Origin: an uncultured Omnitrophica bacterium
GTDB lineage: Bacteria; Omnitrophota; Gorgyraeia; JACQQV01
NCBI GenBank assembly: GCA_947085655.1
Contig: CAMTXH010000005.1
Coordinates: forward strand, 6,110-70,109
Length of the DNA stretch: 64,000 nucleotides
Reading direction: 5' to 3'
The notes under the pieces are model-generated. The model did not search any database. It had not been told where the DNA came from and saw nothing but the letters and a program-made list of their open reading frames with translations. Numbering within the stretch: position 1 is the first letter of the stretch; every line of letters starts with the position of its first letter. This document shows, in pieces, positions 19,967 to 57,266 of this stretch. The translations under genes and the position numbers were made by a program.

Positions 19967-20632
19967 ATGGTGTACGATATTGCCAAAGAGGAAACCTGGC
20001 GCGTTTTCCGGATTATGGCGGAATTCGTGGATGGTTTTGAGGAGTTGGCCGACCTTGGGCCGGCCATCACCATCTTCGGGTCCAGCCGGGCAAAACCCAA
20101 TAGCCCCCATTACAAGAAAGCGGAAAAATTGGCACGGCTTCTCGTGAAGAAAGGATATGCCGTCGTCACCGGCGCGGGCCCCGGGATTATGGAGGCGGCG
20201 AATAAGGGAGCCGCACAGGCGGGGGGAGAGTCGATCGGTCTCAATATCGAACTTCCCTCCGAGCAGAAGGCGAACCGGTTCGTCAAAAAGCGGCTCGAAT
20301 TCCGGTACTTTTTCTGCCGGCGGGTGATGTTCGTCAAGTATGCCCACGCTTTTGTGATGTTTCCGGGCGGATACGGGACGCTGGATGAATTTTTCGAAAT
20401 TGTGACGTTGATCCAAACAAAAAAAATCCGCCCCGTTCCGGTCATTCTTTTGGGAAAGGAATACTGGAATACCTTTTTGAAATGGGCGAAGGACGTTTTA
20501 TTGCGGGGAGATTATATCCTGCCGGAAGATCTCCGGATCTTTCAGGTCGCCGAGACCCCCGAAGAAACAATCAAGCTGATTCAGCATTATGCCGGCAGAA
20601 AGTTTTCTTCCAAGCCCGTTTCGGAAAAGTAA
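19967..20632 (+). CDS. LOG family protein (TIGR00730, nucleotide 5'-monophosphate nucleosidase-like)
   Basis: ITIFGSSR, VVTGAGPGIMEAANKGA and the PGGYGTLDEFFE motif. Confidence 0.8.
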   Translation: MVYDIAKEETWRVFRIMAEFVDGFEELADLGPAITIFGSSRAKPNSPHYKKAEKLARLLVKKGYAVVTGAGPGIMEAANKGAAQAGGESIGLNIELPSEQKANRFVKKRLEFRYFFCRRVMFVKYAHAFVMFPGGYGTLDEFFEIVTLIQTKKIRPVPVILLGKEYWNTFLKWAKDVLLRGDYILPEDLRIFQVAETPEETIKLIQHYAGRKFSSKPVSEK

Positions 20633-20648
20633 CAAAAAGGAGGGTTGT

Positions 20649-20972
20649 ATGGCTGTATTGGAAGTGACAGACGGCACGTTCCGGAAAGAGGTCCTTGAAT
20701 CCGACAAGCCGGTTGTGGTTGATTTCTGGGCGGCTTGGTGCGGTCCCTGCAAGATGCTTTCGCCGATCGTGGATGAAGTGTCGCAGGGAGAAAAGTCGGT
20801 GAAGTTCTGCAAACTCAACGTGGATGACAATCCGAGCCAGGCGGGAAATTTCCAAATTATGAGCATCCCGACCCTCATCTTCTTTAAAGACGGCAAACCG
20901 GTGGACAAAGTCGTCGGGCTTGTTTCCAAGGACGAATTGGCCAATCGGGTTCAAGGTCTTTTGGCGGAGTGA
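20649..20972 (+). CDS. trxA: Thioredoxin
   Basis: WAAWCGPCK active site; aaaaaggaggg RBS; 107 aa. Confidence 0.9.
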   Translation: MAVLEVTDGTFRKEVLESDKPVVVDFWAAWCGPCKMLSPIVDEVSQGEKSVKFCKLNVDDNPSQAGNFQIMSIPTLIFFKDGKPVDKVVGLVSKDELANRVQGLLAE

Positions 20973-21574
20973 AAAAAATCGCCGTTTTCTGCTCGGGGCA
21001 GGGAACAAACCTTCAAGCCATTATTCGCGCTATCCAGCGCAAACAATTGAAGGCAACACTTGCGCTGGTTGTTTCAGACCGTCCGAAAGCTCCTGCCTTA
21101 AAGCATGCCGCCCAGGCCGGAGTCGAAGCGGTGGTACTCCGACCGCGGGATTATCCTTCCCGAAAGCAGTATGAAGAAACGCTCCTACGACTCCTCCGGA
21201 GCCGGCGGATTGAGGCGGTTGTCCTTGCCGGATTCATGCGAATTTTAAGCCCCCTTTTTGTCCGGGCCTACCGGAACCGGATTCTGAACATCCATCCCGC
21301 TCTTCTCCCCGCTTTTCCCGGGAATCAAGCGGTGCACGAGGCACTGCAGCATGGCGTACGGGTCACGGGGGTGACGGTCCATTTGGTGGATGAAGGGGTG
21401 GACACAGGTCCCATTGTCCTTCAGGAGGTGGTTTTGGTGAAGCCGAATGATACCGAATCAACGTTGCATGAACGGATCCACGAGGTAGAACACCGGCTTT
21501 ACCCGGAGGCCGTTGGATTATTGCTTAAACAGAAGCTCCGGGTCGTGGGACGGAAGGTTGAAATTCTTCGGTAG
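20969..21574 (+). CDS. purN: Phosphoribosylglycinamide formyltransferase
   Basis: GTG start overlapping the trxA stop; KIAVFCSGQGTNLQAII and HPALLPAFPG motifs. Confidence 0.85.
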   Translation: MKKIAVFCSGQGTNLQAIIRAIQRKQLKATLALVVSDRPKAPALKHAAQAGVEAVVLRPRDYPSRKQYEETLLRLLRSRRIEAVVLAGFMRILSPLFVRAYRNRILNIHPALLPAFPGNQAVHEALQHGVRVTGVTVHLVDEGVDTGPIVLQEVVLVKPNDTESTLHERIHEVEHRLYPEAVGLLLKQKLRVVGRKVEILR

Positions 21575-22459
21575 GAGGAGATCGCCGAGGCGGATTTTTT
21601 TCTTCCGGTAGAGTTCCAAAAGTTTCCGGTCTAAAATCAGGGGTTGCCCTAGAAAAGAAGTTTTAATCTCAACGGTGTCGTAGCCCTCGAACTGATACCC
21701 GCGAAGGACCTTCAGGACCACTTCCAGGACTAATGTCAAAATTCTTTCTTCATCCTCCGGCTTCATCTCACCCCAGAGATCCGTACTCCGCTTCTCCATT
21801 TCCAAAGAGAGCATAAACTTTCCGGAGAGGGGCTGTTCTGCTCTGAAAGAAGGGTAAGACATAAACTCCCCTGCGGCAGACCGCAACTCGATTTTCCCGC
21901 GAAGGCGTTCATCCTCACCGACTCCTGACCGAATCCGGTGAGCCATCTGGCGGGCGAGAAAATCTTCCAGGCGGACCTCCTCAAGGAAAAAATCCTCCCC
22001 CTTTTTGTCCCGGAAGATCCCCAGGCCCAGCCCAAGTTCAAAGAGCCCCCGTTTATCAAACTCCGAGCGGGAAATGTCGTAGTAATGAAGCCGGCGGATA
22101 TCCTGGACATACCGGATCAATTTCAGTTCGATTCCGGGAATCCGGGTATCCTGGGCAACGATGACGTAAAAGTCGGGAGGGTCATTGGTGCTGAGCACCA
22201 CGCGGGAGGTGGAGAGGACCACGCTGTTCAACTGGTTGCCGACGACTTCGGGAGAAAGTTGAAGAGTGGAGTCAAAAAGTTTCTCAAGCGGGACATGGAC
22301 GCCAAGGGTGTTGCCGACCCGCTTGACCGTTACGTCCACACCGTACTCTTTACGGCAGAGTTGAACGAGGGAATCCGAGAGCGTATCGCGGGGATAAGTC
22401 GGGCCGCAGCCACTCACCCACAAAGACAATACAAGGATCCAGAGGGGGACAACTTTCAT
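21518..22459 (-). CDS. Lipoprotein of unknown function
   Basis: 313-aa ORF with lipoprotein signal LWILVLSLWVSGC; start overlaps the stop of the upstream FtsH-like gene (ATGA); 3' end overlaps purN by 57 bp. Confidence 0.6.
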   Translation of the reverse strand: MKVVPLWILVLSLWVSGCGPTYPRDTLSDSLVQLCRKEYGVDVTVKRVGNTLGVHVPLEKLFDSTLQLSPEVVGNQLNSVVLSTSRVVLSTNDPPDFYVIVAQDTRIPGIELKLIRYVQDIRRLHYYDISRSEFDKRGLFELGLGLGIFRDKKGEDFFLEEVRLEDFLARQMAHRIRSGVGEDERLRGKIELRSAAGEFMSYPSFRAEQPLSGKFMLSLEMEKRSTDLWGEMKPEDEERILTLVLEVVLKVLRGYQFEGYDTVEIKTSFLGQPLILDRKLLELYRKKKIRLGDLLLPKNFNLPSHDPELLFKQ

Positions 22460-24132
22460 GAAGGGGAGGCAGGAGGATGGATATCGGTCCGTTTTTTCCC
22501 GTACTCGGCAAAGATCGCATCGATTTCGTCGTATTCCAACTCTTCCTTCTTGAGGAGTTCTTCCGCAAACCGGTCGAGGAGTTTTTCCTCCTTTTTCAAC
22601 AGGACCTCAACCTCTTTCAGGCAGCTTTGGAGGATCCGGTTCGTTTCCATGTTGAGTTCGTATTTGAGGCGGTCCGAAAGCATATCGGCCGTAAGTTCCC
22701 GGCCGAGCTTGAATCCGGAGAGGGAAGCGTAGTCGCCGAGGAAACCGTTTTCTCCCATCCCGTATTGCCAGACCATCTGATTCGCCTTCGCGGTTGCGTT
22801 CCGAAAATCGGCCGCCACCCCGTTGGAAGTGGTTTCGAATTTGAGTTTTTCGGCCACGTAGCCGGCGAGAGACGTTTTGATATCGGCCAGAAGCACATTC
22901 CGGTTTTTGGTGTGCCACTCCTCCCGCGGCTGGTGATGCACGACGCCGAGGGCGCCGCCCCTGGCGATAATGGAGGCCTTGAAGACATCGTCCGTCGGAT
23001 GGATGAGGTACAAAACCACCAGATGCCCGCTTTCATGGTAGGCGGTCATCCGCCGCTCTTCCTCCGTCATATGGACCCGGTGTTTCAACCCCATGTCAAT
23101 CCGCTCGAGGGCTTCACTGACATCTTTGTATTCAATGATCTCTTTTCCCTTCCGGGTGGCGATGAGGGCAGATTCCTTCACGACGTTTTCGATGTCCGCC
23201 GGGCTTTTGTAAACCGCTTTTCGGGCTAAACGGGGGATATTGATGGACGAGTCGTGCTTGACCTTCCCGAAATAATATTCGAAAATCTTCTCCCGTTCAT
23301 CGAGATTGGGAAGGGAGATAAAGATTTTCCGGTCAAACCGGCCGGGTCGAAGGAGAGCAGGATCCAGTATCTCTTCTTCGGCGTTTGAAGCGCCGATGAC
23401 AATGACATTGGCGTCTTTTTCATGAAGGCCGTCCATCTCCACCAGGAGCTGGTTCTGGGTGGTGTTGGTCTCTTGGGCCCCTCCCATGAAACTGAAGGTT
23501 CGCGTCCGCCCGATCGCATCCAACTCGTCGATAAAAAGGATACAGGCCCCATAGCCGTAAGCGTAGGTCCGGGCCGTGTCGAAGAGTTTTCGGACCCGGC
23601 TTGCGCCCACGCCGACAAAGATTTCGTTGAATTCACTCGCCGCCATCGAGATAAAGGGGATTTTTGCTTCGGTCGCAATCGCCTTGGCGAGATACGTTTT
23701 CCCGCATCCCGGCGGCCCGATCAAAAGAAGCCCCCGGACAATCTTTCCGCCGATTTTCTTAAGACGCGCCCGGTCCCGGATGAGCTGCACCACTTCCGTC
23801 GCCTCGATTTTGGCTTCCTCCATTCCGATGACATCACTCCACTTGATGTCCATCAAAGCACCCTTGACGGCACTTTTCCCGACACTGGCAAGCCCTCCGC
23901 GGAAGCCGAAAAGGTACATGAAGACAAAAACGGCAGCACTCACGCCGGCCAGCATCACATGAATCGGGAGAGTTGCCAGGGTCATCTGGCGGTAGAAGGA
24001 CTCAAGGGAGCTTAGGCCCCAGACGGCAAGGATTACCAGGATCGCAATGGTCCCGATGACCAGGATCTTCATGCTGTGGAGCAGCCAGAACATCTTTAAC
24101 CGATGTCCTTTGATGACAATATGTTTTGGCAT
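22456..24132 (-). CDS. FtsH-like membrane AAA+ zinc metalloprotease paralog with a very short periplasmic loop
   Basis: Two N-terminal TM helices about 15 aa apart; Walker A GPPGCGKT, Walker B ILFIDELD; M41 HExxH as AYHESGH; 558 aa. Confidence 0.8.
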
Positions 24133-24218
24133 TTTGGCTTCCTTTTAGAGGAATAACTACAAGAAACTTAAGACGTTAAAAAAGTATAGCATAATGGAGG
24201 AAGAAAGTCAATGAAGCC

Positions 24219-24254
24219 CAGACTTACGCCTGCCTGCTGGCAGGCGTAAGTCTG
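24219..24254. repeat. Perfect 16-bp-stem hairpin (cagacttacgcctgcc-tgct-ggcaggcgtaagtctg) in the divergent intergenic region
   Basis: Exact inverted repeat read directly; no flanking T-run; further imperfect hairpins follow at 24270-24370. Confidence 0.7.
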
Positions 24255-24452
24255 TGGCTGAATTGATCCTGAGGGCAAAGCCCGAAGGATCTTCTTGTGA
24301 AGATCCTGCGCTACGCTCAGGATAAATTCGGACGATGACTTAGCTCGCCTGACGGCTCGCTAAGTCATGTCCTCATTGACAAAATGACCATTTCGTGGTA
24401 AAATTAATAATAGCGAAAGTAGTAACGTAAGCCCAAACAAGGAGTTGCGTGC

Positions 24453-24935
24453 ATGAAGGGCTCTCCGGCCGTTGCACAGATGGTTCTCCTTGGAATAGCG
24501 CTTGTTATGGGAGGGACGGTCTTTGCAGAACCGCAGTACTCCCTCGAATCAGCGGGCATTTTTTCTCCGCTTGTGAAAGAACCGCTCAACCCGAAAAACT
24601 CACCCTGTCTTTTTACAGAAAACCCCCCTTGGGCATGGACCTCTTTGCCGAAAGAATGGGAACGGCCTTTTCTGAATGAGGAAGCGGTTTCCGAAGAGGC
24701 ATGGCGGCCCCTTTCGGAAGCGGAAATCCGCCAGCGGGAGAAGGAACTTGCGGAACTGGCGGTCAAAATGAGTGCGGAACTGGCCGATTCGCTTTTTCTT
24801 TCCCGATTTTCCGAGAGCATCCTCTGGACAACCGAACGGTTCAGCGCCACCCAACGCCGTCTCGCCGAGCAGTACCGTCTCCACCTCAACCTTTCGGACG
24901 ATAACGCCACACTCACCTATAACATCACATACTGA
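24453..24935 (+). CDS. Hypothetical secreted protein
   Basis: 160-aa ORF with signal peptide MVLLGIALVMGGTVFA; no recognisable domain. Confidence 0.45.
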   Translation: MKGSPAVAQMVLLGIALVMGGTVFAEPQYSLESAGIFSPLVKEPLNPKNSPCLFTENPPWAWTSLPKEWERPFLNEEAVSEEAWRPLSEAEIRQREKELAELAVKMSAELADSLFLSRFSESILWTTERFSATQRRLAEQYRLHLNLSDDNATLTYNITY

Positions 24936-24939
24936 AGCG

Positions 24940-26358
24940 ATGGCCATCCGATTCGGGACATCCGGCTGGAGAGCCGTCATTGCGGAGGAGTTTACCTTTG
25001 CACGCCTTGCCCTTGTGGTGCAGGCGATTGCCAATACCCTGAAGCAGGACGGGGCGGTTAAACGGGGGGTTGTGGTCGGGTATGACACCCGGTTTCTCTC
25101 GGACGCCTTTGCAAAGGAGGCGGCGGAGGTTCTTGCTTCAAACGGGATCCCGGTTTTGTTATCCAGGCGCGATGTCCCGACGCCCTGCGTTGCGTTCACG
25201 ATTCTCCGCCGGAAAACCCTCGGCGGCATTAACCTGAGTGCCAGTCATAACCCGCCCGAATATGGCGGGATTAAATTCTCTTCATCCTACGGCGGTCCGG
25301 CCGGGATCGAAATCACCCGGCGGATTGAAGAGGAAATTCAGAAACTCCTTCGCAAGAAACACCCATTCAACGGCAGTCAGCATTCAAAACAGATTCATGA
25401 CATTGATCCGGCACCGCCCTACCTGAAACACCTCGCCTTCCTCATCGATTTAAAAACACTCAAGCGCGCGAACCTCCGGCTCATCGTCGACTGCCTCAAC
25501 GGGACAAGCCGTGATTACCTCGACCGATTCCTGAAACCGGTCACCGCCGAGTTGACGGTTTTACGGAATACCCTTGACCCGACCTTTGGCGGCAAGCGAC
25601 CCGATCCGGTCGGAGAAAACCTTTCGGGGCTGATTCGGGAGGTCCGGCGCCGGAGGGCCGATTTGGGATTGGCAACGGATGGCGATGCGGACCGGTTCGG
25701 CATTGTGGATCGAAACGGCCTGTTCATCCCCCCGAACGATGTGATCAGTCTTTTGCTGGAGTATTTGATTGAGACTCGGCCGCGGGCGCCGCTTGTGGCA
25801 CGGACACTTGCCACCACCCACCGGGTCGATGCGATTGCCTCGGCACACGGTCTGGAGGTAGAAGAGACGCCGGTCGGTTTCAAATATATCGGAGAAATTC
25901 TCTCCGGGGGGAAGTGCCTTTTGGGAGCGGAGGAATCGGCCGGACTTTCGATACAACATCATGTTCCGGAAAAAGACGGAATTCTGGCGTGTCTATTGGT
26001 CGCCGAGATGGTCGCCTCCCGGCGGAAGAGTCTCCGGGAAATGATGAGGTCTCTCAACCGGAAGTACGGACCTTTTTATTCGCTCCGCCGCGACCTCGCG
26101 CTTTCACCGGAGTCAAAAAAGCGGTTCCTTTCGCACCTTGCCAAGGAAAAGATCCGGCGTTTCGGACCGTTTCCGGTTTTGCGTCAGGGCCGGATGGACG
26201 GATTCAAATTTTACCTTGAGAAAGAGAACTGGATTCTTCTTCGCCCTTCCGGCACAGAGCCCCTTATCCGTCTTTATATCGAGGGTCGTTCCCAAAAACA
26301 TGTCGCGGAACTCAAGCGGGCCTCGGAGCGCCTCATCCGCCGTCTCTCCTCGTCTTGA
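24940..26358 (+). CDS. Phosphoglucomutase/phosphomannomutase family (alpha-D-phosphohexomutase)
   Basis: MAIRFGTSGWRA start; active-site LSASHNPPEYGG; Mg site LATDGDADRFG. Confidence 0.85.
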   Translation: MAIRFGTSGWRAVIAEEFTFARLALVVQAIANTLKQDGAVKRGVVVGYDTRFLSDAFAKEAAEVLASNGIPVLLSRRDVPTPCVAFTILRRKTLGGINLSASHNPPEYGGIKFSSSYGGPAGIEITRRIEEEIQKLLRKKHPFNGSQHSKQIHDIDPAPPYLKHLAFLIDLKTLKRANLRLIVDCLNGTSRDYLDRFLKPVTAELTVLRNTLDPTFGGKRPDPVGENLSGLIREVRRRRADLGLATDGDADRFGIVDRNGLFIPPNDVISLLLEYLIETRPRAPLVARTLATTHRVDAIASAHGLEVEETPVGFKYIGEILSGGKCLLGAEESAGLSIQHHVPEKDGILACLLVAEMVASRRKSLREMMRSLNRKYGPFYSLRRDLALSPESKKRFLSHLAKEKIRRFGPFPVLRQGRMDGFKFYLEKENWILLRPSGTEPLIRLYIEGRSQKHVAELKRASERLIRRLSSS

Positions 26359-27975: not shown

Positions 27976-27999
27976 GCCACTTGGATGTGGCTATTTTTT
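27976..27999 (+). terminator. Terminator hairpin shared by convergent ftsB and the SPFH gene
   Basis: gccac-ttggat-gtggc followed by tatttttt. Confidence 0.5.
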
Positions 28000-28743
28000 C
28001 TCGAGGAAAGGTTTGATCAGGTCGATCGGGATCGGGAAAAGGGTCGTTGTGTTTTTCTCGGTCGCCACATCCGCCAGCGTCTGAAGGTAGCGCATCTGAA
28101 GGGCCATCGGATGTTCCCCCATCATCTTGGCCGCCTCCACGAGTTTCGCCGCCGCCTGGAATTCCGCTTCCGCCCCGATGATTTTGGCCCGCTTTTCGCG
28201 TTCCGCCTCCGCTTGTTTGGCCATCGCCCGCCGCATCTCTTCCGGAAGGTCCACATGTTTCACCTCTACCGCAGAGACTTTGATTCCCCACGGATCGGTG
28301 TGCTTGTCGATGATTTCCTGGAGTTGGGCGTTGAGTTTGTCCCGCTCGGTGAGAAGGTCATCCAGTTCCGCCTGGCCCAGGACGCTCCGGAGGGTCGTTT
28401 GGGAGATTTGGGAAGTGGCAAAGAGATAATCTTCCACCTCCACTATCGCCTTGTTCGGATCTATGACCCGGAAATAGACGACGGCGTTCACTTTGAGGGA
28501 AACATTATCTTGAGTAATCACATCCTGGGGCGGCACATCCAGTACCAGCGTCCGGAGACTGATCTTCGCCATCTGCTGGATCGGATGAAAGACAAGCACA
28601 AGACCCGGGCCCTTTGGCTGGGGCGAGAGACGCCCGAGCGTGAAGATGACACCCCGCTCATATTCTCTGAGCACCCGGATGCAGCTGATGCCATACAACA
28701 CCAAAAGTAAAAATACACCGACGGGAGAGAATAAATACGGCAT
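27991..28743 (-). CDS. SPFH/band-7 (stomatin-like) protein
   Basis: N-terminal TM; [17 protein letters not shown]... [19 protein letters not shown]; 250 aa. Confidence 0.85.
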
Positions 28744-55864: not shown

Positions 55865-55938
55865 TGGGAGATGGTGTAGCGGTAACACACCGGCCTTTGG
55901 AGCCGTGATCGGAGGTTCGAATCCTCCTCTCCCAGCCA
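55865..55938 (+). tRNA. tRNA-Gln (anticodon TTG)
   Basis: Acceptor TGGGAGA/TCTCCCA with a U1:A72 pair, discriminator G, anticodon loop cTTTGGa, T-loop GGTTCGAATCC, encoded CCA. Confidence 0.75.
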
Positions 55939-56021
55939 TCCGTAATGATAGAGGGAGATGGCTGGTGCTTGAGGATTCGAAGGGAAATTTTTTTTCTTTT
56001 CTTGAGGAAAATGAGGAAAAA

Positions 56022-57266
56022 ATGTTAGAGCGTTGTTCGTTTTGCGGAAAAACCAAGGACAAAGTTCAAAAACTTTTCAGCGGACAGGGGGTTTATATCT
56101 GCGACCTCTGCATCAAACTCTGTCATGATGTCATGGTCGAGGACGGCCATCTCCGTTCCCGGAGCCGTCAGGCCTCCCTCGTCCGGGAGGTGCCGAAGCC
56201 GGCCGAAATCAAGCGACAATTGGATGCGTACCTCATCGGTCAGGAAAGACCCAAACGCCAGTTGGCGGTGACGGTGCACAACCATTACAAGCGGGTCCTG
56301 GCCGGCGTGAATGTCGACGATGTGGAATTGGAAAAATCGAACATCCTTTTAATCGGTCCGACCGGATCCGGCAAGACCCTGATGGCAAGGACCCTGGCTC
56401 GGACTCTGGATTTGCCATTTGCGATTTGCGATGCCACCACGCTCACCGAGGCGGGTTATGTCGGGGAAGACGTGGAAAATGTGGTCCTTCGGCTTCTTCA
56501 GGCGGCCAATTTCGACATCAAGCGGGCGGAGTACGGGATTGTCTACATTGACGAGATCGACAAAATCGGAAAAACCCACGAAAACGTTTCCATCACGCGG
56601 GACGTCTCGGGAGAAGGCGTCCAGCAGGCCCTTTTGAAGATTCTGGAAGGGACGATTGCGAATGTCCCGCCGCAGGGTGGACGAAAGCACCCTCATCAGG
56701 AATTCATTCAGGTTGACACCACGAACATCCTCTTCATCGCCGGGGGGACCTTCACCGGCCTTGAGCGGATCATCGAACGGCGAATGGGGCACAAAATCGT
56801 CGGTTTCGGCAAGGGCGCGGAAGGAACCGAAAAGGAACTGGGAAAACTCCTTTCCCGCGTGGAACCGGACGACCTTCTCAAATTCGGCATGATTCCGGAA
56901 TTCATCGGACGGTTTCCGGTGGTCGGGACGCTGGATCCGTTGAGCAAAGCGGATTTGATGGAGATCCTTGTCAAACCCAAAAACGCCCTGATCCGCCAGT
57001 ATACAAAATTTTTTGAATTGGAGAGTGTCAAACTGACATTTACCGATGCGGCCCTTGAGGCGATTGCGGAGGAGGCCCAGCGTCTGAAAACCGGGGCGCG
57101 GGGACTCCGTTCGGTCCTGGAGGATGTGATGCTGGAGGTGATGTACGAAATTCCCTCCCGCAAGGAAGTGGTCGAATGCATCGTCACCCCCGCCTGCATC
57201 CGGCAAGGAATTCCTCCCGAATACATTCTCAAAAGCGGCGTCCGGGCTCAACAGAAAATTGCATAA
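56022..57266 (+). CDS. clpX: ATP-dependent Clp protease ATP-binding subunit ClpX
   Basis: Zinc-binding N-terminus CSFCGK...CDLC; Walker [11 protein letters not shown]; GYVGEDVE and IVYIDEIDK. Confidence 0.95.

Follow-up and report, generated by a model that had tools for sequence, protein, structure and literature searches.

We analyzed a window of 64,000 nucleotides (the whole stretch of DNA considered here) from an uncultured Omnitrophica bacterium (assembly GCA_947085655.1, contig CAMTXH010000005.1, positions 6,110 to 70,109). Two adjacent genes on the minus strand of the window encode an FtsH-type protease and a predicted lipoprotein. Their features, in window coordinates, are:

22456..24132, minus strand: gene for the FtsH-type AAA+/M41 zinc metalloprotease, 558 amino acids counted from the first ATG
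24013..24072, minus strand: transmembrane helix 1, residues 21-40 (from a hydropathy scan and an alignment of 57 orthologue N-termini)
23965..24012, minus strand: periplasmic loop of 16 residues (41-56), in the place of the usual FtsH periplasmic domain of about 70 residues
23902..23964, minus strand: transmembrane helix 2, residues 57-77 (same scan and alignment as helix 1)
23329..23718, minus strand: AAA+ catalytic motifs (from motif positions and a residue-by-residue alignment to solved FtsH)
23695-23718, minus strand: Walker A, GPPGCGKT, residues 139-146
23605-23619, minus strand: pore loop, FVGVG, residues 172-176
23518-23535, minus strand: Walker B, FIDELD, residues 200-205
23329-23388, minus strand: second region of homology (arginine-rich), residues 249-268
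23023..23037, minus strand: HESGH zinc-binding motif of the M41 domain, residues 366-370
22456..22459, minus strand: ATGA, in which the stop codon of the protease overlaps the start codon of the lipoprotein
21518..22459, minus strand: lipoprotein gene, 313 amino acids, of a family without annotation that is found beside this FtsH subfamily
22406..22459, minus strand: signal peptide and lipobox, LWVSG-C18
22085..22390, minus strand: lipoprotein domain 1, residues 24-125 (AlphaFold2 model); helix-strand-strand-helix-strand-strand, the best conserved part
21605..21970, minus strand: lipoprotein domain 2, residues 164-285 (AlphaFold2 model); helices and strands in the same order as in domain 1

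The catalytic part of the protease is that of FtsH. Pfam places an AAA domain at residues 135-273 (E = 2e-39), AAA_lid_3 at 297-339, and Peptidase_M41 at 355-540 (E = 7e-41), and Asp442 aligns with the region of the third zinc ligand in solved FtsH. (There is an alternative start at Met14, at 24091-24093, which gives a protein of 545 amino acids; the public NCBI gene call, P0026, uses it.) The closest solved structures are FtsH chains (E = 3e-99; best score 336 bits). By motif and alignment, the set of catalytic motifs is complete. A sequence-only reading of this DNA had described a 558-residue protein with full AAA+ and M41 (HESGH) modules, and the Pfam domains and motifs confirm this.

Among the features that define FtsH, the protein has the AAA+ module, an M41 domain with HEXXH, and two N-terminal transmembrane helices. 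It lacks the folded periplasmic domain (FtsH_ext, PF06480), which a Pfam search did not find in it, and it scores 473.5 bits against TIGR01241, the NCBIfam equivalog model for FtsH, under the cutoff of 600 bits. That match covers profile positions 110-598 alone, so the part of the profile that corresponds to the first helix and the periplasmic domain is absent. Because both the ectodomain of curated FtsH and the equivalog score are missing, we assign the protein, from its sequence, to a distinct subfamily of FtsH-type proteases. NCBI annotates the orthologues as "AAA family ATPase," and current genome annotation gives the FtsH of Omnitrophota no other name.

The two helices are 16 residues apart, in agreement with the earlier observation that they are close together and that the periplasmic domain is missing. 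We measured conservation in this region as the mean column conservation in an alignment of N-termini from 57 distinct orthologues. It is 0.49 for the N-terminal tail, 0.60 for the first helix, 0.88 for the periplasmic loop, 0.61 for the second helix, 0.64 for the cytoplasmic linker, and 0.86 for the start of the AAA module. The short loop is thus conserved like the ATPase core and far above both neighboring helices, and its consensus, SLESYYRNITLAQ(M/L)P, is almost invariant. Since the loop is kept as tightly as the ATPase core, it should serve a specific function at the inner membrane's outer face.

The second gene begins within the stop codon of the first and is translationally coupled to it, as had been noted before. 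We asked how widely this arrangement is found. A scan of metagenome contigs with an alignment of 22 lipoprotein sequences gave 77 loci, of which 75 include DNA upstream of the lipoprotein gene. (The other two begin inside the lipoprotein gene.) In all 75, the FtsH gene lies immediately upstream on the same strand (55-81% identity by tblastn). Distances between the genes, which rest on start codons predicted by a script, lie between -17 and +187 bp, with +4 and -4 the most frequent; -4 is the ATGA overlap. Ten related loci share the -4 overlap with the window, and 18 more have a gap of +3 to +5 bp.

The pairing also holds in the contexts that we fetched individually (L001-L008, L010, and L093). 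Some of these are close relatives (L001, L002/L003, and L093). Others are more distant: L004 keeps the pair with a lipoprotein of 27% identity and wholly different flanks, L005 and L006 have FtsH followed by a long form of the lipoprotein, and in the large contigs L007 and L008 FtsH is followed by a clear homologue of 413 amino acids that a word-based search had missed. Altogether, the pairing holds down to about 25% identity between lipoproteins. The flanking genes vary: purN-trx lies downstream in convergent orientation in 9 loci, 40 have hrcA-grpE downstream in the same orientation, and the rest have neither. The pair is an invariant unit, whose adjacency is strict, ancient, and far beyond chance. 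The sequence-only reading had proposed a dedicated pair of protease and lipoprotein, and a check for neighborhoods in which the pairing is not conserved came out in favor of that proposal, in 75 of 75 loci and in every other context. Because the pairing is kept in every related locus examined, the two proteins very probably work together.

The lipoprotein itself has no match in Pfam, NCBIfam, PADLOC, or the sequences of the PDB, which bears out the earlier description of a 313-residue lipoprotein (with VSGC at its signal) without a recognizable domain. A Pfam search did not find Band_7 (SPFH) in it either, and comparing its profile to known structures gave matches at chance level only. A word-based search found 25 close homologues. 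When we searched 1.84 billion representative proteins with a profile, we obtained many more: 768 clusters at E ≤ 1e-3, of which 195 are at E ≤ 1e-30. When we ran Pfam on 66 diverse members of the family, we found only four isolated matches, all at chance level. The lipoprotein is thus a member of a large family for which neither Pfam nor NCBIfam has a model and which corresponds to no described family.

Could the open reading frame be a chance one between ftsH and purN? Its lack of a database domain and the overlap of its final 19 codons with purN would fit such an explanation. We nevertheless find it hardly credible, and we rejected it, given the hundreds of homologues with conserved motifs, the invariant cysteine of the lipobox, the in-frame variation in length within the family, and the confident structure prediction (see below). 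Because the profile reaches 768 representative clusters, the frame is, on this comparative evidence, a real gene.

Several features suggest that the product is lipidated. Cys18 is invariant in both alignments of the family (A1 and A2). The listed members with 250 or more amino acids number 153. Of these, 142 have a hydrophobic leader with [GAS]C at its end; among the remaining 11, most look like truncated gene calls. The protein thus has the lipobox of substrates of Lgt and LspA, and we predict that it is a lipoprotein. (By length, 92 of the 153 are short like the protein in the window and 61 are long, at 380-525 amino acids.) Most of the invariant or nearly invariant residues lie in domain 1 (E38, Y39, T51, R86, S90, D104, D120, and R123). 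Other conserved residues are R137, in the segment between the domains, and Q171, R175, and Y255, in domain 2.

An AlphaFold2 model built from the 22-sequence alignment (pLDDT 84.6; pTM 0.82) has two alpha/beta domains, in each of which the second helix is long. The tether to the membrane is very short in this model: Cys-x-P-T-Y-P, or about five residues from the lipidated cysteine to the first helix. When we compared the model to the PDB with Foldseek, the top match was the MS-ring protein FliF (E = 4e-4, probability 0.84, but with a TM-score of only about 0.2). Single-domain fragments of FliF gave weak matches with TMt of 0.42-0.48, and the other weak matches were to sex-pheromone lipoproteins of the CamS type, PrgK, and OsmY. 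In the model, both domains seem to belong to the common helix-strand-strand-helix-strand class, as in ring-building motifs and BON domains; this is a resemblance of class, and membership in either family is not established. Pfam's YscJ/FliF family (PF01514) matched neither the lipoprotein in the window nor any of the 66 family members. Nor did we find secretion or flagellar genes near the pair, whose neighbors are ftsH, purN, trx, eno, or hrcA-grpE.

The long forms have an additional domain. The model for one of them (P0022, at L005 6001-7374; pLDDT 89.1) has an NTF2-like domain between domains 1 and 2, which the lipoprotein in the window lacks. By Foldseek, this insert matches the N-terminal domain of PBP5/PBP2a with a probability of about 1.0, and its TMt to the NTF2-like domains of G3BP is 0.55-0.62.

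We also considered whether the lipoprotein is a relocated periplasmic domain of FtsH, and we rejected this idea. The probability from hhalign was 1.4% against the N-terminus of E. coli FtsH, and no FtsH chain was among the top 50 Foldseek matches of the lipoprotein.

What might the lipoprotein do for the protease? In the mechanism that we propose, an FtsH-type hexameric protease with a two-helix anchor would have lost its periplasmic domain of about 70 residues and retained a short loop. The lipoprotein would have its anchor in the inner membrane's outer leaflet, would be held close to the membrane by the short tether, and would dock on the conserved loop of the hexamer. Once docked, it would do in trans the work that falls to the periplasmic domain and its partners in other bacteria. 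Its role might be to stabilize the hexamer, to control the access of membrane substrates to the protease, or both. We lean toward this proposal, in which binding to the loop provides a periplasmic module in trans for stability and/or control of substrates, by a modest degree.

Several points weigh against it. First, that FtsH and the lipoprotein are in physical contact is something that we infer. Second, the lipoprotein has no detectable similarity to the periplasmic domain of FtsH, either by hhalign (1.4%) or among the top 50 matches from Foldseek. Third, the residue after the lipidated cysteine varies within the family, which bears on whether the lipoprotein is retained in the inner membrane. 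Fourth, the rather divergent catalytic core (473 bits against TIGR01241) would fit a paralogue as well. Finally, conserved adjacency is equally expected for proteins that are linked in function and never touch.

This last point corresponds to another explanation, in which the lipoprotein is an envelope factor, or else a substrate or a regulatory target of FtsH. The two would be coupled by their shared transcript, and there would be no binding in the periplasm. Conservation of an operon is by itself no proof of contact, and the folds of the lipoprotein (two alpha/beta domains, with an NTF2-like insert in the long forms) are generic scaffolds near the membrane. But this explanation does not account for the constraint on the FtsH loop, which is like that on the ATPase core. 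Nor does it account for why the pairing survived every rearrangement, including the duplication of the AAA module that is described below. We consider it quite unlikely.

We then examined where the short FtsH is found. It forms well over a hundred clusters at 90% identity, with proteins of 526-576 amino acids that are 62-80% identical. Nearly all of the homologues whose source is named come from metagenome-assembled genomes of Candidatus Omnitrophota (Omnitrophica). Two of the 120 closest homologues carry other labels, and these are probably mis-binned. A scan of genome contigs with the FtsH protein returned two Omnitrophota loci. In distant Omnitrophota, the pair lies in one syntenic slot among housekeeping genes: eno-ftsB, then ftsH and the lipoprotein, then purN-trx.

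Some Omnitrophota have larger FtsH proteins, of 826-945 amino acids, with two or three AAA modules ahead of the M41 domain. Two of these, P0121 (L091 5001-7580) and P0070 (L092 5001-7484), are in the same slot, with eno-ftsB upstream and purN downstream. Their short loops (SLESFSRK..AQM and QMEGYYKK..AQM) are related to the loop of the protease in the window. The gene after each of them encodes a divergent member of the lipoprotein family that has a lipobox (352 amino acids after P0121 and 339 after P0070) and matches the A2 profile, at E = 3e-13 and 5e-16, respectively. Since these variants keep the lipoprotein partner, the partnership survived duplication inside the protease. (P0069 and P0033 are also variants with multiple AAA modules; the gene call for P0033 is AAA-M41-AAA-M41, without membrane helices.)

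Is the pair an accessory system? The sequence-only reading had suggested a specialized anti-stress module, with a canonical ftsH encoded elsewhere. In such a scenario, the short FtsH and the lipoprotein would be a paralogous system for stress or quality control, and an FtsH with the usual periplasmic domain would lie elsewhere in the genome. The divergence of the core fits with this (473 bits against the TIGR01241 cutoff of 600, and 336 bits for the best solved FtsH), and in many relatives the pair lies beside the heat-shock genes hrcA-grpE. Other bacteria do have accessory FtsH paralogues; an example is FtsH2 of Pseudomonas aeruginosa (PMC10850787). But three lines of evidence speak against it. 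First, the gene is present in very many lineages and, even in distant Omnitrophota, lies in one and the same housekeeping slot, as do the variants with multiple AAA modules. Second, PF06480 is absent from all of the 120 closest FtsH homologues, and there is no second FtsH in the window, where the only other AAA match of the FtsH query by tblastn is ClpX (zinc finger and AAA_2; 55905-57266, plus strand). Third, where the CIRCE operator is present in relatives, it follows the lipoprotein gene instead of preceding ftsH, which gives no visible sign that HrcA controls the pair. The module as originally suggested is therefore not supported, and we regard an accessory system of this kind as unlikely.

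Instead, the neighborhood looks more like that of the lineage's own, positionally conserved FtsH than that of an accessory copy, because the gene lies in a housekeeping slot, often beside hrcA-grpE. We infer that the short FtsH is the main FtsH of these small genomes, and possibly the only one, rather than an accessory paralogue. Overall, the best explanation is that the pair is a two-gene unit for membrane proteolysis that is typical of Candidatus Omnitrophota.

A stronger version of our proposal is that FtsH is "split" in Omnitrophota: the cell would have no other FtsH, and this one would depend on the lipoprotein as its periplasmic subunit. The lipoprotein would assemble on the invariant 16-residue loops of the hexamer, perhaps as a ring of domains like ring-building motifs, and would act as a gate for membrane and periplasmic substrates or recruit them. 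A non-homologous module with a gene of its own would in this way have replaced both the periplasmic domain and control of the HflK/C type. We view this version as doubtful, if quite conceivable. If true, it would make the pair of greater interest.

It is useful to compare the pair to known systems. The Omnitrophota protease shares its AAA+ and M41 modules with E. coli FtsH (HflB; TIGR01241) and, like it, has two membrane helices at the N-terminus and a catalytic chamber in the cytoplasm. And as in the E. coli FtsH-HflK/HflC system, an envelope-side protein that is encoded separately is genetically tied to the protease. Unlike in that system, a loop of 16 residues replaces the periplasmic domain of about 70 residues, and the score falls short of the equivalog's. 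Also, unlike HflK and HflC, the partner is a lipoprotein without an SPFH domain, and its gene is joined to ftsH in an operon by the overlap of start and stop codons.

The mitochondrial i-AAA protease Yme1 belongs to the FtsH family, lacks the inter-helix domain of m-AAA proteases and FtsH, and uses separate membrane adaptor proteins for its substrates. The Omnitrophota protease is like Yme1 in having no inter-helix domain. Yme1 is anchored, however, by one membrane helix in the reverse orientation, and its adaptors are unrelated to the Omnitrophota lipoprotein.

Dedicated lipoproteins are also found with other proteases. NlpI and LbcA are TPR lipoprotein adaptors, each dedicated to one soluble periplasmic serine protease (Prc and CtpA, respectively). 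The Omnitrophota lipoprotein similarly appears to be dedicated to one protease, but the chamber of that protease is cytoplasmic. As to architecture, the lipoprotein resembles YscJ/PrgK/EscJ and FliF in that it has a lipobox at the N-terminus, a short tether, and helix-strand-strand-helix-strand domains in tandem. It differs from them in its TM-scores of about 0.2, in having no profile match, and in having no secretion or flagellar neighbors.

FtsH2 from P. aeruginosa clone C is, like the Omnitrophota protease, a divergent FtsH, and its activity is reported to be set by the N-terminal and linker region (PMC10850787). Unlike the Omnitrophota protease, FtsH2 is an additional copy gained by horizontal transfer, its N-terminus has the usual architecture, and it is not known to have a dedicated lipoprotein gene.

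In the literature, we found no paper that ties Omnitrophota to FtsH in substance or that describes an operon of FtsH and a lipoprotein, nor one on either of the two proteins in this phylum. The periplasmic domain of FtsH is discussed jointly with HflK/C in the handling of substrates (PMC13097134). It is not yet settled how the periplasmic side helps to keep the FtsH hexamer stable and to extract membrane substrates (PMC13097134). Here this side of FtsH has been reduced naturally to a short invariant loop, with a separate lipoprotein added, so that the contribution of the periplasmic module can be studied in a simple system whose parts are genetically separable. Also, a large family of lipoproteins (hundreds of clusters, with no model in the databases) is now defined and has been given its first functional context.

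Finally, we describe the surroundings of the pair. The two features at its downstream end are:

20969..21574, plus strand: purN (Formyl_trans_N, E = 2e-58)
21518..21574: convergent overlap of 57 bp between the 3' ends of the lipoprotein gene and purN, in which 19 codons are read on both strands

These coordinates verify the overlap that the sequence-only reading had pointed out. It has exactly the same length in L001 (6162-6218) and L002 (6862-6918), and it is 9 bp in L007 and L008.

In 30 of the related loci, a CIRCE operator (TTAGCACTC-N9-GAGTGCTAA, with 0-4 mismatches) lies between the lipoprotein gene and hrcA. (L018, L020, L028, L031, L034, and L038 are among them.) We rejected HrcA as a regulator of the pair itself: in the relatives CIRCE is never upstream of ftsH, and there is none in the window.

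We also rejected a known anti-phage defense system, as no model matches both components. Among the defense models of PADLOC, the protease has only generic AAA similarity (to IetA and TRIP13), and the lipoprotein matches nothing.

The window does have an SPFH/stomatin gene (27991-28743, minus strand), about 4 kb from ftsH and by ftsB-eno. It is paired with NfeD and not with ftsH: the gene table of L093 has, just upstream of this SPFH gene (there at 1583-2335), a gene for an NfeD1b membrane protease (205-1572), and the two form a second pair for membrane proteostasis.

Upstream of ftsH and divergent from it is an open reading frame of 160 amino acids (24453-24935, plus strand), which has a signal-like hydrophobic stretch at its N-terminus and no Pfam match. 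L002 has an unannotated open reading frame of 188 amino acids at the same position.

Between this frame and ftsH, the intergenic region contains a nested palindrome of about 174 nucleotides (24207-24380), with outer arms at 24207-24226 and 24361-24380 and three hairpins inside it (24219-24254, 24283-24310, and 24335-24368). An Rfam scan of 20500-25000 gave no credible match. The palindrome is single-copy in the window, and it is absent from the related loci except for a piece of 40 nucleotides in L014. The predicted folding energy of 24190-24400 is about -115 kcal/mol for either strand, and the palindrome could be a structured leader, a cluster of terminators, or a small mobile element.

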